From assembly GCA_030593165.1 (NCBI GenBank), contig JAUVHR010000002.1, positions 1-43,134 of the forward strand: a stretch of 43,134 nucleotides of DNA, read 5' to 3'. The notes below the pieces were generated by a model. It was not told the DNA's origin. It ran no database searches and worked only from the letters and a program-made list of their open reading frames with translations. This stretch comes from Candidatus Thorarchaeota archaeon. Lineage in GTDB: Archaea > Asgardarchaeota > Thorarchaeia > Thorarchaeales > Thorarchaeaceae. A program made the position numbers and the translations under genes. Of the stretch, positions 5,104-41,128 are shown in pieces; position 1 is the first letter of the stretch; each line of letters starts with the position of its first letter.

Positions 5104-5213
5104 AATGAAGTCATTCCTTTAGCAGATGGATTTACGCTCATCTCTACCCGCCATATAATCTTTCAGATTAGTAGGAGGATTTTGATACGATCGGCTGCAT
5201 GCACTGACCTGTT

Positions 5214-7064
5214 TTAAGAGTCTAAGAAAGGTGAGTGAACACCCTCTAGAACCTTCGACTTCCGTGTTCCACCCTTCCCATGACAGTCGTCACCAACTGG
5301 AACCAAGGCCGCCCCTGGTCCTTCGTCACAGGCTTCATCCGAATTCATTGGAGCTTCACTCCTCTTTGCAGATTGAGCTTCTGTTCGCTGCACTGAGTTA
5401 CCACTGCTGTCAGATGCCTTTTGGGCGTCAATGGTGGCAGACGATGTTTCCACGGTTTTTTCCATGGCAGGATCGGTAGTGTCGTCAAACGACTCAAGAG
5501 CGGCTTGAATATGACACTCAACCACGGACCGTCCCCTTGAAGCTGACAGCTTCGAGGACGATGAGGACTTCCCTTTAGAGCGCGAACTCCTCCAGGTCTT
5601 CGGGGGATATCTCTCCTTCTCGCGAGGGAGAAGCCAACCCCCTAGTCCATTGGTCTCATCCCGTAAACGGGGAATGAGCTTGATGAGGCGCCTAGCTATG
5701 TTGATGGCACCATTCTTGTCGGCATTGTCGCGATAGCCGCAGGTGTGACAGATGAACAGGGACTGTTTCGGACGGATTCCGATGTGTCCACATTTGTGAC
5801 AGGTCTTGCTTGTCCAATACTCCAAGACTGGAATGAATCGAGAATCTCTCCCCTTCACCTTCCAACCGTGCCTTGTGAGGGAGTGTTTCAAGCCATCGCT
5901 GATTCTAGCAAATGACCATCTCGCCATCAATGCACGAAAGGCTTTGGGTTTCTTACTATCCCTACCAGCTTTCCTCCGAATGTGGGTCAGCTTGCCTATG
6001 GCCACGTAGAGGTCATACTTCTCGGACAACTCAATGATATGGTCTGTGAGTCGTTTGACAAGTACTCTGTCGTGGTCAACACTGATTCGGAGTCTTCGAC
6101 CGCGCAAGCTGCGAAGCTTTCTGACGACCCCGTCTGCTGGTTGACCATTGTTCAGGTGGGTATCCATCTCTCTCTGGAGAGTTGACACGAGATCATCGTA
6201 CTTCTTGATTCTCTTGGCCTTCTCAGGTTGCGTGAAATATCTCACATGTCTGAGCCTAGTCTGAGTCAGAAGAACGGAACAGACGGCTTTGTTGATTCCG
6301 AGATCGATACCCAGTACTGCGGGCGGCTTGTGTGAGCTGTCTTTCTGTGCAGTTTCAACTCTTACAGAGAATACTACCCACCACTTCCGTCTTGAGTCCT
6401 TGAAGAAACGAAGTGATGTCACCCGTCCCTCTTTCAGTCTGTTGAGATGGTAGGAAGACGGGTTCAAGGGAATCATTAGCTTGTCGTGTAACCGTCCCTC
6501 TCTTTGGGCCGAATCAAGGGAGTCCTGAAGCTCGACCCAGTGTTTAACTTCCGATTTTGGAGTATAGACTATCTTGAACCGTCTGTTGAAGACATAGCGC
6601 GGTAGCTTGTGTGGTTTGTAACCACGGGACTTGAGGGGAGGTTCACCCCCGAGTTCAAGATAGCTCTGCCACATGGCGACTGCTACCTGTCTGCATTCCT
6701 GTAGCTCATTCAGTGAGATATTCGGAAATCGCTCCTTGAAGTCGTGAGGGACAACCAGTCTTCGTTGTGATTCCTTCTTGAACCTCTTCGCAGTGAGAGT
6801 CAGCTTCTCGAGCTTTGCTCCACTGATTCTCTTTTTCCTTTTGCCGACAATTAGTTCATCTTCGCGACGCGCAATCACCCCAAGAAAAGCACGAATCACC
6901 CGAGTGTCCCTGCCGGTTATCCTTGACAGACGAGTACGTTGCCTCTCTGTCATGGATTCCCACTTGATAGGAACCTTAACACTGATGATTGTCTTACTGG
7001 AATGACCCAAGCGTTTCACCTTTCCATATAAATCTCCGACCTGTTTCCGGTCAGAGGGTTTCAC
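5214..7064 (-). CDS. tnpB: TnpB-like (IS200/IS605 OrfB / IS1341-type) protein, possibly catalytically impaired
   Basis: RuvC-I 'VLGIDLG' (D254), Zn ribbon 'CHKCGH..CHTCGY' and RuvC-III 'RDNADKNGAINIARR' (D449) are all present. The RuvC-II position reads 'VAIGKL' (G357) instead of an xxExL motif. At 616 aa it is longer than typical TnpB. Confidence 0.85.
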   Translation of the reverse strand: MKPSDRKQVGDLYGKVKRLGHSSKTIISVKVPIKWESMTERQRTRLSRITGRDTRVIRAFLGVIARREDELIVGKRKKRISGAKLEKLTLTAKRFKKESQRRLVVPHDFKERFPNISLNELQECRQVAVAMWQSYLELGGEPPLKSRGYKPHKLPRYVFNRRFKIVYTPKSEVKHWVELQDSLDSAQREGRLHDKLMIPLNPSSYHLNRLKEGRVTSLRFFKDSRRKWWVVFSVRVETAQKDSSHKPPAVLGIDLGINKAVCSVLLTQTRLRHVRYFTQPEKAKRIKKYDDLVSTLQREMDTHLNNGQPADGVVRKLRSLRGRRLRISVDHDRVLVKRLTDHIIELSEKYDLYVAIGKLTHIRRKAGRDSKKPKAFRALMARWSFARISDGLKHSLTRHGWKVKGRDSRFIPVLEYWTSKTCHKCGHIGIRPKQSLFICHTCGYRDNADKNGAINIARRLIKLIPRLRDETNGLGGWLLPREKERYPPKTWRSSRSKGKSSSSSKLSASRGRSVVECHIQAALESFDDTTDPAMEKTVETSSATIDAQKASDSSGNSVQRTEAQSAKRSEAPMNSDEACDEGPGAALVPVGDDCHGKGGTRKSKVLEGVHSPFLDS

Positions 7065-7085
7065 TCAACATCCTTTGTGGATGTT
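5214..7085 (-). mobile_element. Possible IS1341-like (tnpB-only) element or a domesticated remnant; ends not determined
   Basis: It consists of the TnpB-like ORF plus a hairpin (AACATCC-TTTGT-GGATGTT, 7067-7085) just upstream of the start codon. No TnpA (Y1) ORF was found, and no terminal repeats could be identified by eye. Confidence 0.3.
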
Positions 7086-7213
7086 AGGTGATAATCTCCA
7101 CACTTTCATAGAATCAATACCATATAAATCTATGAAGATTATTTGATTAAACTGTGATGTGATGGGCCCACATGGCGCCTAGCTAGGTAATTTGACTACG
7201 AAAAGACCGCGCC

Positions 7214-7222
7214 TTTATATAA
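7214..7222 (+). promoter_or_regulatory. TATA-box-like element (TTTATATAA) upstream of the giant gene
   Basis: The box is only 7 nt from ATG 7229. It sits about 25 nt upstream of the in-frame ATG at 7244, which fits a leaderless transcript starting at M6 ('MASEG..'). Confidence 0.4.
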
Positions 7223-7228
7223 TAAGAC

Positions 7229-10200
7229 ATGAAATGTTATCCTATGGCCTCAGAGGGCACAGAGAAGAGCAGTCCGTCATACCCCTATAGTCCAGCCCGG
7301 GTCATAGCCCGAGCCTACCTCAACGGTCTCTCATCCCTCAGGAATCTTCTACGCGAGCGAGTCACAAAGGACACGAAGGATGTCTACACCCGCACTCAGA
7401 ATCTATGGACCGGGGCCATGAAGAAATGGGAGGAGAGCAAGAAGAGTGGTGACCGTGACTTCTCACACATAACTGGTGTAGAGAGGCACATGAGGCGAAA
7501 CTTCTACGAGATGATCTGGAAGACCACAGCCCCGTTTGGGAACAAGGAGTACAAGCGGGTCCGGAGTGAGAGAACGGGGCAGGTCGGTCGAATGAACCGG
7601 CTGATAAACATGGCCGGGGCGCAGCTGAGAAACTACGTGGTGACACGGTTCCCCTTCCCTGAACCTGAGGTGATTGGACAGAGAGGCGGGAAGCCCATCT
7701 TCGGGTACGGTGAGGATAGTACATTTGGATGGGTCGAGGTGTCACATGCGACTCTGGGAGAGCTTGACTTTGCGGACATGATCAGGTCACATGTTCTCGA
7801 GCTCTGTCGTAAGTGTTTCATCTATGATGTGCCGATGAACGCAGCCAGAAGGTATGTGAGTCTCCTCATCTGGCGGCTGTCACCATTCCTGGAGTATCTC
7901 TACACCTCTGGTGAGTCGGGAAGGTGGGGATTCGCAAGGTCGAGAAGAAAGGAGGGTAGAAAGAAGACAGGACCTGATGCGGATAAGATTCTGAGAGAGA
8001 TTGTGGCTGAGATCGAGTCGATCTATGGCACACGCACTGGTCGACCCAAGGTGGTCACCGAGTCTGTTGAGGCGTCCAGACAGACTCTGAACAAGTCCTT
8101 CTTCAAGGAACAGATAGAGGAGTTGAGGAGGGTCAAGAAGGATGTTTCAAGAGAAGAGAAGGAGTGCAAAGAGATCTGGGCGGACCTCTTGGACTGTTAC
8201 TGCAGGCGTGGTATTCTTCGTGATGAAGATGCCAAGAGGATGCAGGAGGAAACTGTCAGACGTGCCAGATGGCAAGGTATTCGCTGGCACAGGTTGATGT
8301 CGAACGGACTCCCACAACCATTCGGTCTGGAGTCTGTGGTTCTTGACGGGGACTCTCTGGCAGACGAGGGTGATGAGTGGCTGCTGGTAGCCGAGGTTCC
8401 TGTGACAACAGAGCTGGGAGAGGGGCGTGCGGACTTGGTCATGTTCAAGCGGTATGTGATCCAGAATCCAAGACTGCCATCTCAACTGGTAGTCTGGAAA
8501 CCTGTGGCAGTGTTTGACATCAAGAGTAAGACTGCTTTTGACTGGGAGATTATATCGAAGGAAAAGGTTTCAAAGAAGCATGGCAAGATGGCCATACCCG
8601 GATTCATCCTTCGGAGACGTTCTCTCACTGAGAGCGAGTGGGATGCCGCAGTCAAGGATACTCCCAGAAAGGATGAGAAACAACAGCTTGAAGCGTACGC
8701 CAAAGGGCTTGCGAAAGAATATGGTAAAATCACTGGTGATGTAACTCCGGTTTCGTCACTCACTGGGGTAATCGTTCTCGATACTACTCAGGACTCGGCT
8801 CAAGTTCGTCCTGTAATGTGGAAACTAGTCAAGGAGCTTTGTAGGAATGCTCCAGCTCAATTGCGACGTCGTCTGGATAAACATGTACTGATTGTCATTA
8901 AGGACGAAACCCTAGACTTGTTGAAACTCACAGCCGTGGTAAAGAGCAGTAAGGACCAGCTTGAGTTGATTAGTGAGAAGGGTCATCCACTGGAGACTGT
9001 AAGTCCCTATAGTCCCCATGACGAGTCTACCCAGAGCAGAAACGGGCGTTTCGTCCTATATCTTGCTGTTAACTCGGCATCAAGGTCTGGAATCTCTGCT
9101 ACGTGGATAGCAAGATACTGGCATGGGTTAAGGCTAGTTCAAGACCTCAAATCGGAGGTGTCCTGCTCCAAAGTGATATGGTTGGACCTAGCCGGAGATC
9201 TTGGACATGGACCCTTGGCTGAAACAAGATTGGGATTATCCCAACACCTTCAACAGATTCGTGAGCTGTTTCGCACATCCAAGATCCGGGACCTCTCTTC
9301 AGTTGTTCATGATTTTCTCTTCAGAGGACAATCACTACCCACCCTTGAGGAGATGATAGGAGAGGAGTTGGAGGGATTACGTGATCAAATCGTAGTTGTC
9401 AGTGGATGGAGTCTGTTAAGGAGTGTAGTGCCGCCTAGGCTTCGCTCCGCGCTCTCTGAGTTGGAACGTATCTTGGCTGTTGAGTTGAGGCAGACAGGAA
9501 CCACTGTAGTATGGTTTGGTGAGCCTGAGATAACAGAGCTCACTTCATCCCTGCATCAGAGAAGGTCAGTAATACCATTTGCCGACAGGTCATTTCTTAG
9601 TGGTGTGACCACAGACATTGTCTGGAATCTGCCCATCCGACCCTATGCTTCGGGCCAATTGACTCCTCTGCTTGATGACCTCAGAGTCATAGTCAGTGAG
9701 GATGGAACCAATGCATCCTTTGATCTGGTGGAGATTCAACCTCTTCAGAATTGGTCGTCGAGATTCTGGAATGTTACAAGGGAGTCTATCAGTTATTCAC
9801 CCCGCAAGAGGAGAGGTAGAAGTCCTATTCGAACAATCGATGTGTTGCAGGATGCTGCACTTCAAGAACAACTCATTCGAGATTCTTTGGAACTCGTACC
9901 ATGGTGTAGGAATTACTTGGAGGAGGAAGTAGTACAGGACGGCTCTTCAATGACTACCAAGCTGAAGACGTATTCCTTGAAAAGAGGTCTTGGAACACGT
10001 ACATCTGGGGGACATCGTCTGACATACAGGACGAGGATGCCAACTTCTAGACACGGGAAGTCCTACATGCCTCTGAGAGATATTATCCCAAAGGCACTGA
10101 TTACACATCATCGCGGCTACAGGGAGATTCTAACTCCTACCAGCAACAAGAAGAGCGTTCATAGGCCGCCTAATGAGGCTCTGGTGAGATTTCACGGATT

Positions 10201-12628
10201 CAGCGAGAAGAGAGCTGAGTACATTGAACTCAAACACATCTCGCAGGTTGTCAAGACGCTCCTGCAATCATGCGAGAAAAACACCACGGATATAGAAGAG
10301 GATTGGACTGGATTCTTGAAGAGATTAGGATCACTTGTAACAACAGATCAGAAAGCAAATCGTAGTAGAGTCTTGAATGATATTGTGAATCTCCTGCAGA
10401 CGGACCCAATATCCGTTCAATTATGGGACACTATGGGATGGATGCGTGGGACTCGAATGACGGAGGGGTTGAACCCACAAGACCATGAGATGTTGGAGGA
10501 CCTGTTGAGTGCCAGACCGCATCTTACTCTCTCTTACGGCAACTATCTGTTCCTTATGCTTCTGGGACTTGTAAGGGAGTTTCCGTCACTGACTGAAGAG
10601 CATCTCAAACAATTATGGGACATGTTGAGACCTTGGCAACTCAAACAGATGAGTTTCAGACATACTATGGAAGAGGAATCAGAAGAGAGTGTGTCAAGAT
10701 TCGACATTCGAGCGGTCTGGGCTAACTTGAGAAAGCGAGTGAAGACAATGGTCGCTCGGCCTGTTCCGGAATCCGCCTCTATTAGGTATGGTCAGTTCTT
10801 GGTGTATACAAAGGATGAGGACGAATCCGCGTATAGTATGGTACTCGAGGAGAGGTACAATCGAGAAAGGATGCTTGTTGGAGTTTGGGTGGGATCCGAG
10901 CCCCTTATGCTCAAGTCTTCTATGAGCTGGGCCACGACTAATAGGGATGAGATTGTGGGATGTCTGTTGAACCATAGTAGTCCATCTGGGACTTACGATA
11001 TCGCAGTGAGCAATCATTCAGGGGATGACTACCTCTGGATATGTAATGAGGGTGAATGGGCCCTTCAGGGGAAACTTGATCTTGTCAGACAGAAGAGAGG
11101 TTCAGTTACTGGAATCCGTGGATTGTGTGTGTCGGAATTCACTCAGCAGGGTATCTCAGTAGTGCCAAGGGGGCTTCAGGCTCCATCAGAACTTGGCACG
11201 AAAGTGCAGCGAAGGCTTACTCAAGTCTTTGACTGTTTCAAGTTGTGTGTAGCAAGTTGTGTTTCGTTGGATATTGACTCGGAGGGTTATGTGGTCAGTT
11301 TCTGCGACCTAGATGACGGTGAGCTAGTCGACAAAAGGGTCATCCAACGAACCTCAGAGCTCATTGCCTTACTTCGCACTCCAGTTGTGACAGGACTCCC
11401 ATTACGAAGCTCAAGAGATTCAGAGGTTTACTTGACTTGGAGGTTGTATGATGATATTGACTATGGTGAGCTTCAACTCTTCAAGCCATATGTTGAGCGG
11501 AAGACTCCATTTGTACATGTACGAATGATATTGCCTCAGACAGCATCTGATCTGATGAGCCGTGATGTGGAACATATTACTCTGACAGTAACACATGACG
11601 AGTCATTATGTCCCGTCAAGAACAATGGTACAGACAGACATGATGCATGCTGGCGCATTGGAATTCCTGATGATGTTGATGATTCCTTTCTGAAGGAACT
11701 CAGTACCAGGGGGATGGCCGATAACGAGATTCTGAGTCTGATATCTTCAGGCAAGGTGTTTCTTGAGGGTGCGAGCTATGATTTTGATCACATATTTGAC
11801 CCTGAGCTTCATACAAGAGAAGCTGTGGTGTTCAGAGAGAGCAGCTACTTCGCCCGCAAGTTCGAAACAAAAAGAGTGAGTGCTGGTACGTACCTTCAGA
11901 TAGAGTCAGAGAAACTGGTCTGTATCTTACGCAAAGAGAATCGGGATATAGTGCTCAATGTCAGGTCAGACATAACTGGTGAAGAGGTCTATTCATGGAT
12001 ACTAGTGACGATGGAAGAGGGTGTGGGAATTCAAGATGCAATGATAGACGCTGAGGCCAGACTTCAACAGATTGTAGATGACCACTTTGGAGAGGGTCAT
12101 GGGCTTGGAACTCGAATAGACGATTATGAGCAGGTTGCTGAGAACATCAGGGAAATGCTTCAGACGATGTATGTTTCAGACCTTAGAGAGTCTGTCTTTG
12201 CGGATAGTGGAATGGACCATGGTGCACTTGAAGAACTTCTTCAGTACTACAGGGACCAGGCGGAAGAAGACCCGACCCTTGAGATAGAAACCGCTTCAGT
12301 CCTTCATGAGGTTGCACAACTGTTGATTGAACAGGACGAACTAGATGAGGCAAGTGCTGTGATTGAGGAGTGTATTGAAATTCTCGAGAGTTACCTGAAT
12401 AAATGGGACACTGATTCCGTCCGAATAGATCTCTCAGAGATGTTGGTATTGGGAGTAAGAGTAATGATGTCGAGGGAGGGTGAAAATCTAGACAGTGATT
12501 CAGTAGAGCGGAACCTCAAGAGAGCAGTGAAACTCAGCGAGGGGATTACTACTCATGGTCATCCTCATTCTCAGGCCAAGAGAATTGTTGCTGAAGCAAA
12601 AGAATTGCTTGTACAGATTGGAGAATAG
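7229..12628 (+). CDS. Giant orphan protein (1,799 aa) with a PD-(D/E)xK-type nuclease motif and a C-terminal acidic helical-repeat region
   Basis: An uninterrupted 5.4-kb ORF. The nuclease-like motifs are 'GRAD402LVMF', then 28 aa later 'VFD430IK432SK', then 'Q486LEAY490'. No P-loop was seen. The last ~160 aa are helical, acidic and TPR-like. The start may be ATG 7244. Confidence 0.8.
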   Translation: MKCYPMASEGTEKSSPSYPYSPARVIARAYLNGLSSLRNLLRERVTKDTKDVYTRTQNLWTGAMKKWEESKKSGDRDFSHITGVERHMRRNFYEMIWKTTAPFGNKEYKRVRSERTGQVGRMNRLINMAGAQLRNYVVTRFPFPEPEVIGQRGGKPIFGYGEDSTFGWVEVSHATLGELDFADMIRSHVLELCRKCFIYDVPMNAARRYVSLLIWRLSPFLEYLYTSGESGRWGFARSRRKEGRKKTGPDADKILREIVAEIESIYGTRTGRPKVVTESVEASRQTLNKSFFKEQIEELRRVKKDVSREEKECKEIWADLLDCYCRRGILRDEDAKRMQEETVRRARWQGIRWHRLMSNGLPQPFGLESVVLDGDSLADEGDEWLLVAEVPVTTELGEGRADLVMFKRYVIQNPRLPSQLVVWKPVAVFDIKSKTAFDWEIISKEKVSKKHGKMAIPGFILRRRSLTESEWDAAVKDTPRKDEKQQLEAYAKGLAKEYGKITGDVTPVSSLTGVIVLDTTQDSAQVRPVMWKLVKELCRNAPAQLRRRLDKHVLIVIKDETLDLLKLTAVVKSSKDQLELISEKGHPLETVSPYSPHDESTQSRNGRFVLYLAVNSASRSGISATWIARYWHGLRLVQDLKSEVSCSKVIWLDLAGDLGHGPLAETRLGLSQHLQQIRELFRTSKIRDLSSVVHDFLFRGQSLPTLEEMIGEELEGLRDQIVVVSGWSLLRSVVPPRLRSALSELERILAVELRQTGTTVVWFGEPEITELTSSLHQRRSVIPFADRSFLSGVTTDIVWNLPIRPYASGQLTPLLDDLRVIVSEDGTNASFDLVEIQPLQNWSSRFWNVTRESISYSPRKRRGRSPIRTIDVLQDAALQEQLIRDSLELVPWCRNYLEEEVVQDGSSMTTKLKTYSLKRGLGTRTSGGHRLTYRTRMPTSRHGKSYMPLRDIIPKALITHHRGYREILTPTSNKKSVHRPPNEALVRFHGFSEKRAEYIELKHISQVVKTLLQSCEKNTTDIEEDWTGFLKRLGSLVTTDQKANRSRVLNDIVNLLQTDPISVQLWDTMGWMRGTRMTEGLNPQDHEMLEDLLSARPHLTLSYGNYLFLMLLGLVREFPSLTEEHLKQLWDMLRPWQLKQMSFRHTMEEESEESVSRFDIRAVWANLRKRVKTMVARPVPESASIRYGQFLVYTKDEDESAYSMVLEERYNRERMLVGVWVGSEPLMLKSSMSWATTNRDEIVGCLLNHSSPSGTYDIAVSNHSGDDYLWICNEGEWALQGKLDLVRQKRGSVTGIRGLCVSEFTQQGISVVPRGLQAPSELGTKVQRRLTQVFDCFKLCVASCVSLDIDSEGYVVSFCDLDDGELVDKRVIQRTSELIALLRTPVVTGLPLRSSRDSEVYLTWRLYDDIDYGELQLFKPYVERKTPFVHVRMILPQTASDLMSRDVEHITLTVTHDESLCPVKNNGTDRHDACWRIGIPDDVDDSFLKELSTRGMADNEILSLISSGKVFLEGASYDFDHIFDPELHTREAVVFRESSYFARKFETKRVSAGTYLQIESEKLVCILRKENRDIVLNVRSDITGEEVYSWILVTMEEGVGIQDAMIDAEARLQQIVDDHFGEGHGLGTRIDDYEQVAENIREMLQTMYVSDLRESVFADSGMDHGALEELLQYYRDQAEEDPTLEIETASVLHEVAQLLIEQDELDEASAVIEECIEILESYLNKWDTDSVRIDLSEMLVLGVRVMMSREGENLDSDSVERNLKRAVKLSEGITTHGHPHSQAKRIVAEAKELLVQIGE

Positions 12629-12760
12629 CAGACGACTTTGTTTACTGTGATATCATGATAACTATCACCCAAGAATAATTTCATCGGGACTTTTGTAGGT
12701 CTTAGTGGCCTAATAGCCTAACCATAAGTTTATTAGGCGTCGAAGGTACCTAACGCTTAG

Positions 12761-13585
12761 GTGTGTACTTTGGACCGTGATTATGAAAGTGTACAAATCG
12801 CAACTCCTGCAGTGACAATGGAAACAGTGGGAAAAGTTACGAGAGGACTATTCTCCTTCAAAAAACGTGCCACATACAAGGATTTAGCAAAACTAGTCGG
12901 TTTGCACGAAATCACTGTGAGTAAAGGTTTTAGTGCTGCGAGAGACCTTGGCCTAATGGAAACGACAGGTGGCAGAGGAGTATACATACTAACAAGTGTG
13001 GGCGAGAATTTTGCAAGGCTACTGGATTTTGGGAAAGAGGTGGATTGTCGAACACTGATTGCTAAGCAGATTATCGAATTGGAGAACTGGAGTGAGATAG
13101 TCACGTTTCTGGAGATTAATCGGGGCATTCCCAAGAATCCCCTAGATTTGGTTTTGCATGTAGAAGGAAGACTAGGGAAGCGATGGAAGAGTAGAATGCG
13201 CACGAAGATTGCCAGATCGTACAGGTCGATTCTTGAATATGCAGGCCTGATAGAAATTGATGATGGGAACATTATATCGATACTATCTATGGGGGGAGAA
13301 TCCGAATTACTGGGCCCATCTGATGGCCAAGAACCTGCAAAATCACCAACTGAAACCGGAACCTATTCTTCATCTATTTCTAATGTAAGGATGTTGACAG
13401 ATTACGCTGAGTTCGGTATTCCCGACTTCTTTGTCGTATTTGTTAAGAAAACACCTAGTGCTGTAGACTTCTTTCGAAAGCAAATTGCGAATAGTAGTCT
13501 CTTTGTGGCATGGCTTGATACCTTACAAAATGAGCTTGAAAAGAAATCATTGGAAGAGAATTTTGATAATGAGGAAGGGGACTAA
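12761..13585 (+). CDS. Tandem winged-helix protein, paralog A (274 aa)
   Basis: It aligns clearly by eye with ORF 14099..14899 ('IATPxxTM', 'ARxLGL', 'WxEIVxFL', 'DLVxHVE', 'YRxIL', 'DYAExxIP', 'WLD'). Two wHTH-like segments are present. The start is GTG 12761 or TTG 12770. Confidence 0.7.
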   Translation: MCTLDRDYESVQIATPAVTMETVGKVTRGLFSFKKRATYKDLAKLVGLHEITVSKGFSAARDLGLMETTGGRGVYILTSVGENFARLLDFGKEVDCRTLIAKQIIELENWSEIVTFLEINRGIPKNPLDLVLHVEGRLGKRWKSRMRTKIARSYRSILEYAGLIEIDDGNIISILSMGGESELLGPSDGQEPAKSPTETGTYSSSISNVRMLTDYAEFGIPDFFVVFVKKTPSAVDFFRKQIANSSLFVAWLDTLQNELEKKSLEENFDNEEGD

Positions 13586-14106
13586 TGACAGAAGAAGAGA
13601 AGCCAACCTTAGTTCCTACTTCAAGTATGAAGTTTGAGAAACATGTCTTGATTCTCAGAGCATATGTCGTCTTGACTGATAATGGGAAATCACCGGTCCA
13701 CTACAAGACTGTGATGAAGATGACACGACTTGCAAGAACGCAAATCTCTGGTACTAACGCCTTCTTTGTTGGACTAGGCCTTCTTCGAAAGGTCGATGAA
13801 GGAATATACAATCCAGTTGATCAATCCGTTCTCTTTATTGGTGAAAAACCTGGAGATGAGGACTTTTCCGTTCTGAAACCAGTTCTACAATATTCTGCTT
13901 TATACCGATTTATTAAGGGATTGATAAGAATACACGGGACTGTCACTGTTGATGATGCTGTTTCCTTCTTACTTGAGGAGTCTGGAGAGAAGTCGCCCGA
14001 GCGCGCGAAACGGGCCCTTGAGTGGTTGGAAAAGTGTGGTCTCATGTCGACTGTGGACGATGAAATCACATTAATTGATATCAAGGAGGGGATAGGAAGT
14101 GTCTGA
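13585..14106 (+). CDS. Tandem winged-helix protein, short member (173 aa)
   Basis: Its ATG shares 1 nt with the preceding TAA (TAATG). Two wHTH-like segments are present ('HYKTVMKMTRLARTQISGTNAFFVGLGLL', 'VTVDDAVSFLLEESGEKSPERAKRALEWLEKCGLM'). Confidence 0.65.
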   Translation: MTEEEKPTLVPTSSMKFEKHVLILRAYVVLTDNGKSPVHYKTVMKMTRLARTQISGTNAFFVGLGLLRKVDEGIYNPVDQSVLFIGEKPGDEDFSVLKPVLQYSALYRFIKGLIRIHGTVTVDDAVSFLLEESGEKSPERAKRALEWLEKCGLMSTVDDEITLIDIKEGIGSV

Positions 14107-14899
14107 TGAGAAGACCTCGCCTAGGATTGCGACACCAATCCAGACAATGGGAACAATTAGACGTGTGATTGAAGGCCTCTACAGGTACAAGAAAACGGCT
14201 AAAGGAACAGAATTCTCGACGCACGTGGGGATGCATTATAGTGAAGTAGGCAAAGCCCTAGGAGATGCTAGAAGTCTTGGGCTTGTTGCAGATGGGGAAG
14301 AGTATGGATCATTCATTCTGACTGACGAAGGAAGAAAGTTCGCAATACTTCTGGGCCATGAAAAAGATGATGAGTGTGGGCAGTTGCTTGCAGAACTGAT
14401 TCTGAGTTCCCCTGAGTGGATTGAGATTGTCCTATTCCTGAAAGAACGTATCGGACAGCCTTTTGACATTGCTGACTTGGTGGTACATGTCGAGCAAAAA
14501 CACGATAAATCATGGAGCAGTGGTAGACGTAAGAAGGCGGAAAGAGCATATAGAACAATTCTCAGCTTTGCCAATATCGTTCGGATTGAGGGGGGCATGT
14601 TGGTGCCAACATCAATTCTGGATGACAGCCACCAGTCAGAACAAATTACTATAGATAGTATTGATACTGGTTTGGCACACACGCTTCACGCAAGCTTCAG
14701 ATCATTGCAGTCCACACTGACTAAGACTAAAAATCCGGATTATGCAGAAGTCACTATTCCAAAATTGTTCACATTGAGCGTGAATATGTCCAGAGAAGCT
14801 GTAGAGTATGTTCGGGAACAACTGTCCAAAGAGAGTATGTTGAACGTGTGGCTCGATGAAATCGAAAGTTGTTTGGAATCCGAAAGTGAAATAGATTGA
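14099..14899 (+). CDS. Tandem winged-helix protein, paralog B (266 aa)
   Basis: The GTG start overlaps the previous ORF by 8 nt. It is a paralog of ORF 12761..13585 along its whole length. Confidence 0.7.
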   Translation: MSDEKTSPRIATPIQTMGTIRRVIEGLYRYKKTAKGTEFSTHVGMHYSEVGKALGDARSLGLVADGEEYGSFILTDEGRKFAILLGHEKDDECGQLLAELILSSPEWIEIVLFLKERIGQPFDIADLVVHVEQKHDKSWSSGRRKKAERAYRTILSFANIVRIEGGMLVPTSILDDSHQSEQITIDSIDTGLAHTLHASFRSLQSTLTKTKNPDYAEVTIPKLFTLSVNMSREAVEYVREQLSKESMLNVWLDEIESCLESESEID

Positions 14900-15137
14900 C
14901 GAAACAAGCAGTACATTCATTCGGATTTCAATTGCTTGAAACCCAGAGTCTGAAATAGTGCTATCAATCGATTGGTAATTTCGTGTGCTGTATCATCAGA
15001 TGATTTTGATTTCACTGTAAAGGTAATTCTGATATCCAGCTCCACTTCTGTTTCTCGCGTAGATCCTTCTTCATGCTTTTTGAAAAGGCATCAATAGAAA
15101 TATGAGTTAGTGATGTAAGTTTGAGGAAGGGGACTTT

Positions 15138-17114
15138 ATGGAAAAACTTCGGATTCCAATAGGGATTTCTTCAGATAGGTTGCTTTCTGTTTTGTCAGCA
15201 TGGTTCAGAACAGCGGGAGAAAGTGGAGAGTACTCAACAAGTGAAGTAGAGAAGAAGACCAAAGAAAAGAAACAAACCCTTCAGAGACAGAGCCCGTTCC
15301 TTGTTCAAATCGGGATTCTTGAACAAGTTGGTTCTAAATACAAGCTAACAGATAGAGGAAAACAAGTTACAAGATACGTGGAGTATGAACAATGGAATGA
15401 CTTCAAAGAAGTAATGAATAATCTAGTATTTGATTGGAAAGAATCTCAAGTTCTTTTTGAATACATTCACGAAAATGAACCTATTGAAATCACGACCTTG
15501 ACGAAACGTATCATGATGTATTCAGGGCGTGCTTCTTCCGATACGAATGTGTGGATGGGAGCGAATGCACTTCTGGGTATTCTGGAAAAAGCTGAAATTC
15601 TACAAATTTCCGAAAGTAGAGTCAGCCTTTCGGATGATTTTTTGAGAAAACGTCAAGGTGGAGTGGATGATTGGGGTCGTTCAGGTTTCACGAAACCTGA
15701 GGACAAGATTTCGATAACTAGTATTGTTATTCAGAATATTAAATCTCTCTTAAAAGTTGAATTTCCTGTCAAGAAAATGAACATCCTTATCGGGAAAAAT
15801 TCATCTGGAAAGTCATCTGTATTGCATGCTTTACTTGCTCTTAGATGCTTAAAATGGGGATCTACTCATGCCAGTAGTTCCTTTCATGATTTTCGCTGGC
15901 TTCATCGAAAGAACGCAATTGGACCAATGTTTCTGTCACTGAATGGTTCTGTAACAAATAGGAATGAGATTACTCCATTCAAGTTTAGAGTGTCATTCTC
16001 TATCACAGGATCATACTGCACCCAATTGTGCATTTATGATGGGTTGGATAGATTATGTGACACTTCCCTGTTTTATAGAAGACAAGATTTGTGGATACCC
16101 TTCAACCAGTATGATGGTTTAGAGGAACTAGAGGAATTGCGGGATAATATGCAGGAAGGCCTCATTCAGCTTTCTGAAATGTTGGAGAAGTATACTGATA
16201 CAGACCCAGCGAGTGAAACATCCTCGGATTCTAATGATGAACATAACTTCTCACTAATGATGGATAACAAAGGGAGTAGAGAGCAGACCTATCTTCCACG
16301 ACGTTTTCTGGGAGCATGGACAGGAATCTTACCTGAGTATCTGAGAGAAACCACAATGGAATCTCTGCGACTTGGTTACATGGTAAGTAGATCAGGATTA
16401 AGTAGATTTGTTGATAATATCGAGTTTATTCCCGCAGTGAGAGGCTTCTTTTCTATTGATTATCAACAAAGAGATACCCCCCCCGAGAGAATTCCTGATG
16501 ATTTGAGTTTCGTCACATATTTCCTCAGTAAGCTGATTTACAGCGATCATATTGTTGATGATGATTTAGAGGATATTAAAAAATGGGCAGCAATGTTTGG
16601 AATTCCTGGATTTGAGGCATTAGTACAACCAGGTCCAAAAGTAGAAGGCAGGGGTCGAATTTATGATGGCAATGAAACATTGCCAGTCGCATTGTATGGA
16701 TTTGGATCTAATCAGTTTTTGACTGTGGTTGGCAAATGCATTCTTGCACCGAGAAATGCGCCAATTCTCATAGAGGAACCCGAGATACATCTTCATCCTG
16801 AACTTCAAGCACTATCGGCTGATTTCTTGATTGAAATGATGCAAAGGGGGCACCAAGTTTTTGCAGCAACGCATTCAGAACATCTAATCGCAAGAATTCA
16901 GAGGAGAATTGCTGATGGGACGATAACTCCAGATGATGTCGCTATTCTTTGGATACACTTGGACGATGAGAGTCAAGGTACATCAATTGAAGAAGTGAAT
17001 ATCAGTGATGATGGTATAATTTATGGAGGACTGCAAACATACCTTCGATTTCTTGAGAGTGAGTTAGTGGAAATTGAACTTGCAAGACAGGCTAGAGAAC
17101 AGGAAGAGGAATGA
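15138..17114 (+). CDS. Tandem-wHTH module fused to an ABC/OLD-type (AAA_15/AAA_21-like) ATPase
   Basis: The N-terminal ~170 aa repeat the architecture of the three upstream wHTH proteins. Walker A is 'G219KNSSGKS226' (15792-15815). The Walker B/D-loop block is 'ILIEEPEIHLHPELQ...FAATHSEHLI' (from 16764). A GGAAGGGGA SD-like box precedes the ATG. Confidence 0.8.
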   Translation: MEKLRIPIGISSDRLLSVLSAWFRTAGESGEYSTSEVEKKTKEKKQTLQRQSPFLVQIGILEQVGSKYKLTDRGKQVTRYVEYEQWNDFKEVMNNLVFDWKESQVLFEYIHENEPIEITTLTKRIMMYSGRASSDTNVWMGANALLGILEKAEILQISESRVSLSDDFLRKRQGGVDDWGRSGFTKPEDKISITSIVIQNIKSLLKVEFPVKKMNILIGKNSSGKSSVLHALLALRCLKWGSTHASSSFHDFRWLHRKNAIGPMFLSLNGSVTNRNEITPFKFRVSFSITGSYCTQLCIYDGLDRLCDTSLFYRRQDLWIPFNQYDGLEELEELRDNMQEGLIQLSEMLEKYTDTDPASETSSDSNDEHNFSLMMDNKGSREQTYLPRRFLGAWTGILPEYLRETTMESLRLGYMVSRSGLSRFVDNIEFIPAVRGFFSIDYQQRDTPPERIPDDLSFVTYFLSKLIYSDHIVDDDLEDIKKWAAMFGIPGFEALVQPGPKVEGRGRIYDGNETLPVALYGFGSNQFLTVVGKCILAPRNAPILIEEPEIHLHPELQALSADFLIEMMQRGHQVFAATHSEHLIARIQRRIADGTITPDDVAILWIHLDDESQGTSIEEVNISDDGIIYGGLQTYLRFLESELVEIELARQAREQEEE

Positions 17115-17623
17115 ATTCTATGGCCTGCAATGGTTTGGCAGTCATCCTTGATACATCAGTTTTTGTTTGCTGTTTCAAGCTAAGAGAAGATTATGGAAAT
17201 ATAATAAATAAAATTAGAGAGGACGGTTTCTATATCGTGATTTGCCCTTCTATACGGCAAGAGTATGTAAGACATATGTATGGAAGATCTGCATCATCTC
17301 ATTGGTTAGTGCGGCAGCATCTAGATGATTTACAAAAAGATGGGGTTCTGGTTTATGCAAGACCTATAGAGGAGAACGAAATAGAGATTCAAAGGAAAGA
17401 TCAACATGTGATAGATTGTGCTTTTAATAAGACATGCAGAGTTCACTTGATTATCACTGATAACGCAAAAGATTTTGTTTCAAAAACTAAGCAGTTTAGA
17501 ATTCCAGTGATAGTTCAACCAAGGAATTTTCTTGAGAAGAATAATAGAGAAAATCTTTGTAGTGAAATACGACGGTTACTATCTGAAGAGAAAAAGATTG
17601 GGAAGTCTGTAGTAATTCACTAG
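17111..17623 (+). CDS. PIN-domain nuclease
   Basis: An ATGA overlap joins it to the ATPase stop. The PIN acidic residues are 'VILD14TSV', 'RQEY', 'VIDCA' and 'IITDNAKDF'. 170 aa. Confidence 0.75.
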   Translation: MNSMACNGLAVILDTSVFVCCFKLREDYGNIINKIREDGFYIVICPSIRQEYVRHMYGRSASSHWLVRQHLDDLQKDGVLVYARPIEENEIEIQRKDQHVIDCAFNKTCRVHLIITDNAKDFVSKTKQFRIPVIVQPRNFLEKNNRENLCSEIRRLLSEEKKIGKSVVIH

Positions 17624-40023: not shown

Positions 40024-40054
40024 ATTTGGTAGATGCTCTTTGTTTTGTGATATA

Positions 40055-41128
40055 ATGTTAGTGATAACCCGTTTTTTACATATTGAGAGTGAACCACAAC
40101 TGCAAAAAACTTCTGTGTTCCCAATCCTTGAGTCAATTGTCGCAAACATCGAAGACTCAGCTACAAGTACACATAGTTTGCTGTTGAAATGTTTAGAGGT
40201 AGCCGAGCTTCTTGATGTATCTTCAAGTGAAAAGAGTTGGATAACTCAAGAATTGACCGGATATGAACATCAAAGTGAAACATCGAAAATGGAACTCCCC
40301 TCTTTCAAACAAGCCCCTCATTATAGATGGTTGGAATTGTCTGGAAGGTATGACATCATTCAACCCTCGAAGACATTCAATACTGTCGGACAGTTTGCTG
40401 TATGCTTTCCATGTGACTATCTAGAAAATGCAACTTCAAGCATCAGCCTCAAAACAACCCTTGTTATAAAGCCTGAAAATATTTGGGAAAAACTGACCAG
40501 GGGTACTATAGTTGCTACGGCACAAGCAGAATTACCCGTCAGTAGGATTAAGCCAATAGTCCAATCCATTCGGGGTTTTGTTTACAAATTCGCAGTTACT
40601 AATCTGATTTCACTTCAGTTTAGTAAATCTGTGTCTGGAATTATTGACAACACAAGAAACCTTGTTGCTAGTAGGTTAAGATTCGTCTCCGAATCTCTTC
40701 TGAGATTCATAAATGAAACACTGGATTCGCATAAGAGGACCACAGAAGGTCTGCATTGGAGAGTAGCTCTAGAGAACATCAGAACAATTCTGCGTAGGTT
40801 CACTGGTTTGATATTAAAAGATGCAATGTTGATTGATACTAGACCGAAAGAAGGAGAAACGAGTAAGAAGGTCGAGCTAATAATCAAATGGTGTATGAAT
40901 CAATTGAAAGGGGGAAGTAGGACGGAATTGGATTCGTTGAAGAAAGAGAGCATACTTCTACTGGATTTGATTAACAAACCAATCCATGGTGAAATTGATG
41001 AAGTGAGTAAGAATGAAGTGGAGAGAATCTTACTTAGATCGCTCATATGGATGGCAGGTATAATAGATATTCTAGACCAATCAGGGTATACTTGGGTTCC
41101 AGAAGAGATTTCTTCTGGTTCTGAGTGA
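40055..41128 (+). CDS. AbiTii-like (abortive-infection N-terminal domain) protein
   Basis: The N-terminus 'LLLKCLEVAELLDVSSSEKSWITQELTGYE...LPSFKQAPHYRW' matches my recollection of the AbiTii signature (..A..L......W...EL.GY). The rest was not recognised. The start is taken at ATG 40055. Confidence 0.5.
   Translation: MLVITRFLHIESEPQLQKTSVFPILESIVANIEDSATSTHSLLLKCLEVAELLDVSSSEKSWITQELTGYEHQSETSKMELPSFKQAPHYRWLELSGRYDIIQPSKTFNTVGQFAVCFPCDYLENATSSISLKTTLVIKPENIWEKLTRGTIVATAQAELPVSRIKPIVQSIRGFVYKFAVTNLISLQFSKSVSGIIDNTRNLVASRLRFVSESLLRFINETLDSHKRTTEGLHWRVALENIRTILRRFTGLILKDAMLIDTRPKEGETSKKVELIIKWCMNQLKGGSRTELDSLKKESILLLDLINKPIHGEIDEVSKNEVERILLRSLIWMAGIIDILDQSGYTWVPEEISSGSE

Follow-up and report, generated by a model that had tools for sequence, protein, structure and literature searches.

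A 10.4-kb Gene Block of a Candidatus Thorarchaeota Contig as a Probable Juxtaposition of an aCas1–TnpB-Type Element and an ABC ATPase–PIN Module

Six Same-Strand Genes and a Divergent TnpB-Like Gene

The DNA studied here (hereafter, the window) is a stretch of 43,134 nt from Candidatus Thorarchaeota archaeon, i.e., positions 1 to 43,134 of the forward strand of contig JAUVHR010000002.1 (GCA_030593165.1), and our subject is a 10.4-kb block of six open reading frames (ORFs) following each other on its forward strand, together with the gene that lies divergently upstream. The block consists of a giant ORF (7229–12628, +; 1799 aa), three small ORFs, wh274 (12761–13585, +; 274 aa), wh173 (13585–14106, +; 173 aa) and wh266 (14099–14899, +; 266 aa), an ATPase ORF (15138–17114, +; 658 aa) and a PIN ORF (17111–17623, +; 170 aa). 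The divergent gene is a TnpB-like ORF (5214–7064, −; 616 aa), separated from the giant gene by an intergenic region of 164 bp (7065–7228) that presumably holds both promoters. Within the block, the wh274/wh173 junction reads TAATG (13583–13587), wh266 has a GTG start at 14099 and overlaps the TGA stop codon of wh173 (14104–14106), and the PIN start overlaps the ATPase stop codon in an ATGA (17111–17114), while the two gaps measure 132 bp (12629–12760) and 238 bp (14900–15137).

A first reading of this sequence (hereafter, the original prediction) took the six genes for one defence or conflict system not described before, the giant protein working alongside the winged helix-turn-helix (wHTH) proteins, the ATPase and the PIN protein. 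Its account of the six ORFs, of their overlaps and of their gaps is exact to the nucleotide, and its assignment of an ABC-type ATPase, of a PIN protein and of a TnpB-like upstream gene is backed by our profile searches. Likewise, the impression that the 3′ half is more AT-rich than the giant gene is borne out by GC contents of 0.48–0.54 in the giant gene, 0.42–0.44 in the three small genes and 0.38–0.40 in the ATPase and PIN genes (flanks: about 0.46).

Co-Occurrence of the Genes across Related Loci

From a comparison of gene content, motifs, co-occurrence, RNA covariation and homology breakpoints, we conclude, with a probability of about three in four, that two independent units, an aCas1–TnpB element and an ATPase–PIN module, stand side by side in the 10.4-kb block. 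In tblastn searches of about 80 giant loci, homologs of the ATPase, of the PIN protein and of wh266/wh274 were found near the giant gene in one other contig only (BAJATHOR; loci L003, L004 and L008), and the co-occurrence of the giant with the wHTH–ATPase–PIN genes amounts to 2 of the approximately 45 loci that have enough downstream DNA. What follows the giant gene is variable, with a different content at each of the first seven loci compared: restriction-modification genes of the MmeI and Alw26I types, unknown small genes, a Rad51-like gene or genes for TPR proteins; in L001, the orthologous variable stretch carries restriction-modification genes.

The shared strand, the short gaps and the three translational couplings do speak for one system, as does the presence, in L003/L004, of the giant and of the wh266–ATPase–PIN genes within 3 kb of each other at an orthologous site. 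Yet three opposite-strand genes intervene between them in L003/L004, about 80 giant loci are devoid of ATPase, PIN and wh266 genes, six sequence-distinct ATPase–PIN loci are devoid of the giant gene, homology between close relatives stops just past the giant stop codon, and the GC content of the giant gene and that of the ATPase–PIN genes differ by about 10 points. We therefore give next to no credence to a single six-gene system. The original prediction had itself looked to co-conservation, and the genes are not co-conserved; its fallback, two juxtaposed modules, is the reading that holds. Neither does the whole block appear to be an accessory insertion between mvhD and hdr, as had been proposed: mvhD/FlpD–TnpB–giant on the left and cupin–ACAD on the right recur across Thorarchaeota contigs, and only the stretch after the giant gene varies.

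The constant partner of the giant gene is the divergent TnpB-like gene, which the original prediction treated as a mere neighbour. In six of the first seven giant contexts, a Cas12f1-like_TNB protein of 580–715 aa is encoded divergently upstream. When a hidden Markov model (HMM) built from these context proteins was run over the six-frame ORFs of all giant loci, a TnpB-like ORF turned up on the opposite strand upstream of the giant wherever the upstream DNA extends to 1.3 kb or more, a single contig excepted (about 70 loci), with a spacing of about 200–300 bp kept across loci. The pair recurs in unrelated neighbourhoods. The first of the two units thus reaches upstream past the coordinates originally given, taking in the TnpB-like gene and a structured RNA.

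A Structured RNA over the 3′ End of the TnpB-Like Gene

Across the last 150 codons or so of the TnpB-like ORF, constraint acts at the nucleotide level: past aa 475, identity at third codon positions climbs from about 0.38 to 0.55–0.65, while amino-acid identity stays at about 0.45. Compensatory changes are visible in the conserved blocks of DNA alignments (31 loci), and RNAalifold proposes covarying helices (~5263–5601, −) with 54 pairs, 34 of which show compensatory double changes. As controls, we slid the pairing partners by 1–3 columns and ran 500 shuffles. The slid controls yielded 8–14 pairs with double changes, and 40–47% of their cells were paired, versus 97.4% in the actual alignment; the covariation score was 0.372, versus at most 0.116 in the controls, and none of the 500 shuffles reached the observed values.

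The corresponding omegaRNA-like structured RNA (5200–5649, −; nhmmer profile match with an E-value of 1e-70) extends over the final ~430 nt of the TnpB-like ORF. It bears the conserved motif GTTCACTCA (5232–5240, −), present in most clade-A loci examined (see below for the clades), and its conservation stops near 5212, immediately 3′ of the stop codon (5214–5216) and about 25 nt after GTTCACTCA. Directly past this point, some 20 nt, CAGGTCAGTGCATGCAGCCG (5192–5211, −), represent a candidate guide or host flank: this sequence is common only to loci at the same chromosomal site, and it occurs once in the window, without a second match there. Judged from these alignments, a putative scaffold laid over the 3′ end of the gene and followed by a flank-derived guide is the anatomy of a TnpB omegaRNA. 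Another candidate, a ~150-aa C-terminal protein domain of TnpB recurring as small stand-alone proteins, was rejected, the conservation being nucleotide-level and covarying as RNA. Small stand-alone “ORFs” found elsewhere do resemble these last ~150 codons, which had looked like a low-complexity extension.

Copies of the RNA also exist without a TnpB ORF. The window itself has a partial copy of the RNA 3′ end, including GTTCACTC (40060–40150, −; nhmmer E-value 7e-8, model positions 346–437), which adjoins an ORF (40040–41128, +) and lies where a phosphoglucomutase gene gives way to a second stretch of low GC (0.37–0.39), which opens with an AbiTii-domain protein. Elsewhere, we found such copies in L006 (23374–23791), L032 (10776–11200), L051 (21411–21844), L061 (23223–23660) and L079 (5144–5343), as well as in L002 (21372–21654), L003/L004 (21271–21508), L009 (7049–7163) and L021 (17455–17538). 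These copies are full or partial, and several occur either beyond the variable stretch that follows the giant gene or immediately behind the gene itself. Such copies might represent solo ends of the element, leftovers from previous insertions or additional genes for guide RNAs.

The TnpB-Like Protein

The TnpB-like protein is matched by the Pfam profile Cas12f1-like_TNB (E-value 1.8e-13; 50.9 bits for a cut-off of 26.3) and, below the curated cut-off of 100, by the NCBIfam profile guided_TnpB (4.6e-24; 85.4 bits), and it retrieves TnpB/Cas12f structures in a search of the PDB. Its homologs, aligned in sets of 6 and 61 sequences, fall into two clades that both partner the giant family: clade A (37 sequences of ~555–630 aa), to which the window belongs, and clade B (~715–750 aa). 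The RuvC-I Asp D254 (GIDLG) and the RuvC-III Asp D449 (NAD) are found in 37 of 37 clade-A sequences and are invariant in the six-locus alignment, while the zinc ribbon (CxxC...CxxC), whose Cys pairs align with those of TnpB/Cas12f structures, is kept in nearly all clade-A rows.

At the position of the canonical RuvC-II Glu, the 37 clade-A sequences, that of the window among them, all have Gly instead (VAIGKL or VAIGRL), whereas clade B keeps the canonical D-E-D, with FEDL at RuvC-II. Every clade-A row has a conserved Glu, E415 (“PE.WTS”), which may be a relocated RuvC-II Glu. The main text of Altae-Tran et al. 2023 (PMC10691335) describes both TnpB branches with a rearranged RuvC-II and exapted TnpBs that are nuclease-dead; given the former, the missing Glu alone does not mean a dead enzyme.

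The Giant Protein

Far from being an orphan, as originally stated, the giant protein has more than 100 relatives: 27 homologs were collected by a word-index search, all the named ones belonging to Thorarchaeota (Asgard), and a metagenome scan added 76 loci. Scans of viral contigs with the giant and with the ATPase returned nothing useful and gave no sign of a virus origin. Searches of Pfam, NCBIfam, PADLOC and PDB sequences with the giant produced nothing but weak TPR matches and noise. The PD-(D/E)xK + QxxxY motif noticed in the original prediction holds up in full: E389, D402, K432, Q486 and Y490 are invariant across 23–27 homologs (24–50% identity in the set of 23). This motif is a RecB/Cas4-type signature. 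In the structural comparison of the N-terminal region described next, the PD-(D/E)xK fold was absent from the top matches.

An AlphaFold2 (AF2) model of aa 1–580 (mean predicted local distance difference test score, pLDDT, 82.7) has Cas1 chains as its top specific Foldseek matches (7kfu_C, 7kft_E and 9p11_C; probability 0.96–0.97, E-value 0.05–0.11, target-normalised template modelling score, TM(target), 0.34–0.39). In the Cas1-like helical domain (~aa 20–230), E85, H173, D180 and D183 vary little or not at all, D183 being invariant in an alignment of 11 N-terminal sequences; by eye, these residues stand in Cas1-like motif contexts, and it is likewise by eye, not through a scored alignment, that they were matched to E141, H208 and D221 of E. 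coli Cas1. On the basis of the modelled fold, of the genomic context and of the literature, and not of sequence similarity, the N-terminus of the giant is likely a member of the Cas1 family, and the giant itself is probably “aCas1”, a protein reportedly defined by Makarova et al. 2020 (CRISPR J 3:156).

For aa 561–1660, the AF2 model (pLDDT 79.4) reveals a RecA/KaiC/Rad51-like domain (~aa 608–850), for which Foldseek returns RAD51 paralogs, Dmc1, T7 gp4, DnaB and KaiC (E-values down to 1.5e-5, probability 1.00). Its P-loop region reads SASRSG, is devoid of Lys and thus degenerate, so that the domain is possibly no ATPase. The giant further comprises other alpha/beta domains and ends with a TPR-like tail of ~140 residues (aa ~1660–1799) with weak TPR matches, which is specific to the protein or lineage of the window. 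In L006, a Rad51/KaiC-like gene (14797–15837, −) lies right downstream of the giant gene and echoes the RecA-like domain inside the giant.

Limits and Mobility of the Element

In many locus pairs sharing 82–92% nucleotide identity at the 3′ end of the giant gene, homology stops 0–40 nt past the stop codon, which leaves the downstream genes outside the aCas1–TnpB unit, and at the opposite end it stops with the RNA scaffold. We favour an element of about 7.4 kb (~5.19–12.66 kb in the window) that would be mobile and site-specific and would not include the five downstream genes. Its copies are multiple and scattered in genomic position, one 213-kb contig carrying two of them. At the site flanked by FlpD on the left and by orf211–cupin–ACAD on the right, L021 and the window are only 27% identical in the giant and 46% in TnpB, versus 88% in FlpD and 79% in ACAD. 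Such a contrast is suggestive of recurrent site-specific insertion or replacement, as opposed to simple vertical descent. As neither terminal repeats nor a target-site duplication turned up, it is the distribution and the breakpoints that point to mobility. In L024, a tRNA-Arg gene (10406–10502) lies 18 nt past the giant stop codon; it is the one of three loci with tRNA-like sequence after this codon that ARAGORN confirms, those of L016 and L026 being similar to tRNA 3′ ends with no tRNA called. In the window, a short inverted repeat, GTGATA...TATCAC, lies directly 3′ of the giant stop codon (12629–12680), within CAGACGACTTTGTTTACTGTGATATCATGATAACTATCACCC, and may correspond to a terminator or to an element-end hairpin.

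One might argue that the aCas1–TnpB pair is domesticated, i.e., that it is non-mobile at this site and acts as a host RNA-guided regulator or nuclease complex, vertically inherited at the FlpD locus. FlpD–TnpB–giant is indeed found in at least six contigs, with cupin–ACAD to the right in four of those, terminal repeats were not detected, and no member of the clade retains the canonical RuvC-II Glu, as in the nuclease-dead exapted TnpBs presented in the main text of PMC10691335. However, there are many paralogous copies in unrelated contexts (two on a single contig), divergent lineages occupy one and the same site (giants 27–50% identical for flanking genes that are 79–90% identical), breakpoints are sharp at both ends, a tRNA gene adjoins one of the elements, and the conservation of E415 in every clade-A row fits a rearranged active site better than a dead one. 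Domestication is thus unlikely in our view.

Another reading places the far end of the element beyond the PIN gene, so that the element would ferry variable defence genes (restriction-modification, ATPase–PIN) as cargo. In its favour are the partial omegaRNA copies that, in the same orientation, are found past the variable stretch in L002, L003/L004 and L021 and, in L009, immediately follow the giant; moreover, the variable stretch of L001 does hold restriction-modification genes, and the partial copy of the window edges the second low-GC stretch that opens with the AbiTii gene. Against this, a sensitive search found no omegaRNA copy flanking the ATPase–PIN island of the window, homology ends at most 40 nt past the giant stop codon in many locus pairs, several elements have a housekeeping or tRNA gene directly after the giant, and no terminal repeats were found. 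A cargo role for the ATPase–PIN genes is unlikely, and we keep to an element that ends just after the giant gene.

Comparison with Published Mobile Elements

Altae-Tran et al. 2023 assign aCas1-associated TnpBs to two Asgard groups, Cas1H-Asgard-1 and -2, and report that tnpB has a hypervariable region on its downstream side and then the conserved GTTCACTCA (main text of PMC10691335). The window and its relatives share with these loci the Asgard hosts, the two TnpB clades, a variable stretch past tnpB with GTTCACTCA behind it, a Cas1-like fold as top specific structural match and the scattered multi-copy distribution, and nothing clearly contradicts the membership of the element. Taken together, the giant gene, the TnpB-like gene and the RNA match an aCas1–TnpB element, a type already published computationally in Asgard archaea and uncharacterised. 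Several features of the window were not found described in the main text of PMC10691335: the PD-(D/E)xK + QxxxY motif and the RecA-like domain of the giant, the covariation of the ~390-nt RNA inside the ORF, the RuvC-II Gly with its candidate relocated Glu, and the end of homology right after the giant stop codon.

Compared with the TnpB–omegaRNA pairs of IS200/IS605 elements, the window has the RuvC-I/III Asp and the zinc ribbon, as well as an RNA over the 3′ end of tnpB whose conservation ends at the flank. Its TnpB is nevertheless about 200 aa longer and lacks the canonical RuvC-II Glu, its partner is a Cas1-like protein of 1600–1800 aa instead of a Y1 or serine TnpA, and its RNA scaffold is unusually long (~390 nt) and matches no Rfam family. 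As for casposons, they too are self-contained elements with a Cas1-family protein as predicted integrase, and the adjacency of one copy to a tRNA gene is reminiscent of them; in contrast, the window element has no gene for a family-B DNA polymerase, neither terminal inverted repeats nor a target-site duplication was found, its Cas1-like domain is N-terminal in a giant multidomain protein, and it includes a TnpB gene and an RNA.

The ATPase–PIN Pair

The ATPase is matched by the Pfam profiles AAA_15 (1.6e-23) and AAA_21, downstream of an N-terminal wHTH-type domain of ~190 aa. Walker A K225, Walker B ILIEEPE and the H-loop THSEH are invariant in three orthologs, and a signature-like motif is kept. 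The PIN protein belongs to PIN_3 (Pfam; 2.5e-6, 28.7 bits for a cut-off of 27), and its acidic quartet (D14, E51, D97 and D117) is invariant in three orthologs of 36% identity. Hence, the four residues singled out for mutation in the original prediction, D402 and K432 of the giant, K225 of the ATPase and D14 of the PIN protein, are each invariant in the alignments made here.

A word-index search with the ATPase was swamped by generic AAA_15 proteins and missed an ortholog of 42% identity, while an exhaustive search gave 18 representatives at E-values of at most 1e-30. These include four full-length wHTH fusions (38–46% identity), wHTH-less relatives of ~430–450 aa, and free proteins of ~250 aa resembling the ATPase N-terminus (35–39% identity); altogether, the wHTH–ATPase fusion is seen in five ATPase lineages. 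The 300-aa insert of the ATPase has no similarity outside its own small family, and a search with this family-specific insert returned two proteins only. In every relative with downstream DNA (L003/4, L085, L087, L089, L090, L092 and L093), a PIN homolog (35–40% identity) directly follows or overlaps the ATPase. The adjacency is seen in eight sequence-distinct loci when the L089/L090 fragments (~97% identical) are counted once. Several of these ATPase–PIN loci are without any wHTH, giant or TnpB gene, and the wHTH genes are dispensable, being absent in L085 and L092. In these loci, the neighbours of the pair include restriction-modification genes (N6_N4_Mtase + MvaI_BcnI) and genes for HNH, DUF4145 and SIR2_2 proteins. 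As far as these alignments and gene orders tell, the conserved core appears to be a two-gene ATPase–PIN operon, to which the wHTH domain and the free wHTH genes would be lineage-specific additions.

The Winged-Helix Genes

The original prediction counted four copies of one tandem-wHTH module, in the three small proteins and in the ATPase. At the profile level, wh274, wh266 and the ATPase N-terminus are indeed related: wh274 and wh266 are clear paralogs (36% identity, E-value 1e-46), wh274 aligns with the family of free ~250-aa homologs of the ATPase N-terminal domain (hhalign probability 95%, E-value 4e-8), and wh266 aligns with the ATPase N-terminus itself (87%, 4e-6; 79–87% and 4e-6 to 1.7e-5 over all comparisons with this domain). 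The case of wh173 is marginal, with hhalign probabilities of 44% against the ATPase N-terminus (E-value 2.4e-4, 150 columns) and of 32% against the 250-aa family (5e-4), no match to the wh266 family and none in Pfam. Its gene shows translational coupling with those of wh274 and wh266, and the protein may be one more, diverged copy of this wHTH module. Pfam, PADLOC and NCBIfam give no match for the giant, wh173 and wh266, and for wh274 only a weak, sub-threshold one to HTH_Crp_2 at aa 33–77.

Directly upstream of the ATPase–PIN pair of the BAJATHOR contig (L003/L004) lies a wh266 ortholog of 251 aa (37% identity, tblastn E-value 1e-56), and a wh266-type free gene stands beside an ATPase–PIN pair only in the window and in this contig; scanning the genome collection with the wh266 family recovered only the already known contig. 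No wh173 ortholog was found in L003/L004, the other giant locus with the wHTH–ATPase–PIN module. A free 251-aa wHTH homolog of the ATPase N-terminal domain (P0076; L091, 159–914) is encoded at the same cupin–ACAD hot spot in a close relative (ACAD 80% identical), on a short contig where neither ATPase nor PIN gene is visible. Finally, the 12-nt string GAGGAAGGGGAC occurs twice in the window, ahead of the wh173 start (13572–13583) and ahead of the ATPase start (~15120–15131). At the former position it codes for EEGD, the C-terminal end of wh274. The repetition may reflect a shared ribosome-binding context, or else the remains, within the 238-bp gap, of a wh274-like gene that has decayed.

Likeness of the ATPase–PIN Pair to Named Systems

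In PADLOC, the best models for the ATPase are NsnB (3.9e-38), matched in part (positions 112–323 of 345), and AriA (3.4e-26), matched over its full length (positions 3–373 of 373). This, with the strict ATPase–PIN adjacency, agrees with the original view that an ABC/OLD-type ATPase is here combined with a small nuclease. As in PARIS, ATPase and nuclease form a two-gene operon, but the window partner is a PIN_3 protein without any DUF4435/TOPRIM (AriB) match, the ATPase has an N-terminal wHTH, free wHTH paralogs are present and the host is an archaeon. Menshen consists of the ParB-DUF262 sensor NsnA, of the ABC ATPase NsnB with a DUF3696 tail, and of NsnC, which associates an inactive PIN-like domain with a nuclease effector (PMC12065111). 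Besides the PADLOC match, the likeness extends to the three-part logic of the module (wHTH, ABC ATPase and a PIN-fold protein directly after the ATPase); it is limited by the lack of a DUF262/ParB gene and of a PF12476 (DUF3696) match in the ATPase, and by the PIN protein of the window, which at 170 aa has an intact acidic quartet and no second effector domain.

With Septu, Gabija and OLD, the likeness comes down to matches with PtuA, GajA and Old in the ATPase portions of these models (E-values of 1e-10 to 1e-17, over two short stretches), and the window locus has neither an HNH (PtuB) partner nor a TOPRIM domain fused to the ATPase. The likeness to Wadjet and other SMC/kite systems, also raised in the original prediction, was rejected: the ATPase has 658 aa and no SMC coiled coil, SMC_N matches aa 193–232 only (24 bits for a cut-off of 40), and no Jet or kleisin model of PADLOC matched in the locus. 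To sum up the comparisons, the ATPase–PIN pair shares the logic of PARIS, Septu and Menshen and qualifies as a member of none of them. The partner genes that define the named systems are absent here, and the giant/TnpB pair corresponds to the published aCas1–TnpB loci. By analogy, the rare and unnamed ATPase–PIN pair is a plausible variant of the ABC-ATPase-plus-nuclease defence architecture.

A distinct reading would make the wHTH–ATPase–PIN genes a toxin–antitoxin (addiction) module or a regulatory cassette, with PIN as the toxin and the wHTH proteins as autoregulators or antitoxins. PIN_3 is a typical toxin family, AAA_21 carries the annotation “putative AbiEii toxin, type IV TA”, the wHTH proteins resemble DNA-binding regulators, and the orthologous neighbourhoods are rich in toxin–antitoxin pairs of the VapBC and other types. 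The strict partner of PIN is, however, not a small antitoxin but an ABC ATPase of 430–660 aa with intact catalytic motifs, the wHTH genes can be missing (L085 and L092), and the nearest profiles are those of defence-system ATPases. Hence, we find a toxin–antitoxin role doubtful, noting that such a reading and that of abortive infection overlap mechanistically.

Proposed Functioning of the Two Units

In the first unit (~5.19–12.66 kb), the TnpB-like gene would carry an omegaRNA-type scaffold on its own 3′ end, with the giant gene transcribed divergently. The giant would be the integrase or transposase of the element, its Cas1-like domain performing integration and its PD-(D/E)xK domain processing the DNA ends. 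For its part, the TnpB–omegaRNA complex would read the host flank just past the scaffold as a guide and cleave empty or re-joined sites, with the effect that the element is retained or homes back. TnpB of IS200/605 elements has been shown to cleave such sites and thereby to retain the element.

The second unit (12.76–17.62 kb) sits in a variable low-GC stretch next to the element, with the translationally coupled ABC ATPase and PIN genes as its conserved core. The ATPase has a fused N-terminal wHTH-type domain and is preceded by three small genes in the window (one in BAJATHOR), at least two of the three being, by profile comparison, free copies of that domain. We infer that the ATPase and the DNA-binding wHTH subunits, as sensors or adaptors, would keep the PIN RNase inactive, and that sensing of foreign DNA or protein would release or activate it, resulting in a defence of the abortive-infection type, by analogy with PARIS (AriA–AriB). 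The same restrain-then-release scheme has been proposed for Menshen (NsnB–NsnC).

Several observations weigh against this picture. Regarding the independence of the two units, transcription from the giant gene may read through the same-strand genes that follow at short distances. Regarding the giant, the E-values of its Cas1 matches in Foldseek are weak, and sequence searches do not recover Cas1: there is no Cas_Cas1 match for the window giant and 22 homologs in Pfam (E-value of at most 1), nor any match in NCBIfam, in a phmmer search of the PDB or in a profile search of the PDB, and hhalign gives a probability of 0.2% between the giant N-terminal profile and E. coli Cas1, a weak comparison with a single distant Cas1. 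The clade-A TnpB-like protein, which is missing the canonical RuvC-II Glu, could be catalytically dead. As to mobility, terminal or flanking repeats and a target-site duplication were looked for in the window and not found, when repeats are said to “often” flank aCas1–TnpB loci in the main text of PMC10691335, and no conserved left-end motif emerged across 49 loci. Finally, the PIN protein has no match in PADLOC, no named system supports a defence role for the ATPase–PIN pair, and wHTH and PIN proteins could equally form a regulator–toxin pair.

Implications

The association of aCas1 with TnpB is already published, and our analysis of the window refines and extends it without opening a new category. 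What it changes is the status of the giant, once an “orphan” and now a member of a large Asgard family partnered with an RNA-guided nuclease and with a very well supported structured RNA. A bolder idea, which we put forward as speculative, is that the aCas1 giant and the TnpB–omegaRNA make up an RNA-guided integration machine, i.e., a Cas1-based transposon, in which selection or surveillance of the target would fall to TnpB with its ~390-nt RNA, while the Cas1-, Cas4- and RecA-like domains of the giant would integrate the element; leftover copies of the RNA end would possibly mark or seed the variable islands where modules of the wHTH–ATPase–PIN type accumulate. RNA-guided targeting, if true, would explain the presence of very different element lineages at the same FlpD-adjacent site, and archaeal relatives of eukaryotes would then harbour an RNA-guided Cas1-based transposon. 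This raises the questions of whether Cas1-family integrases work with TnpB-type guides and of how the elements return to the same chromosomal site, with relevance to how CRISPR adaptation arose, to RNA-guided transposition and, possibly, to tools for genome engineering.

To our knowledge, Asgard archaea are a group in which hardly any defence systems have been characterised so far. The ATPase–PIN pair, with its optional wHTH domain as putative sensor and its free wHTH paralogs, would be an archaeal, PIN-armed addition to the immune modules that combine an ABC ATPase with a nuclease (PARIS, Septu and Menshen). In L001–L005, the regions upstream of FlpD/TnpB are rich in toxin–antitoxin and other defence-type genes, namely those for VapBC, MazE-PIN, PIN-DUF3368/UPF0175 and an NucS_C/SduA_C-like protein, and FlpD is duplicated in L001 and L002.

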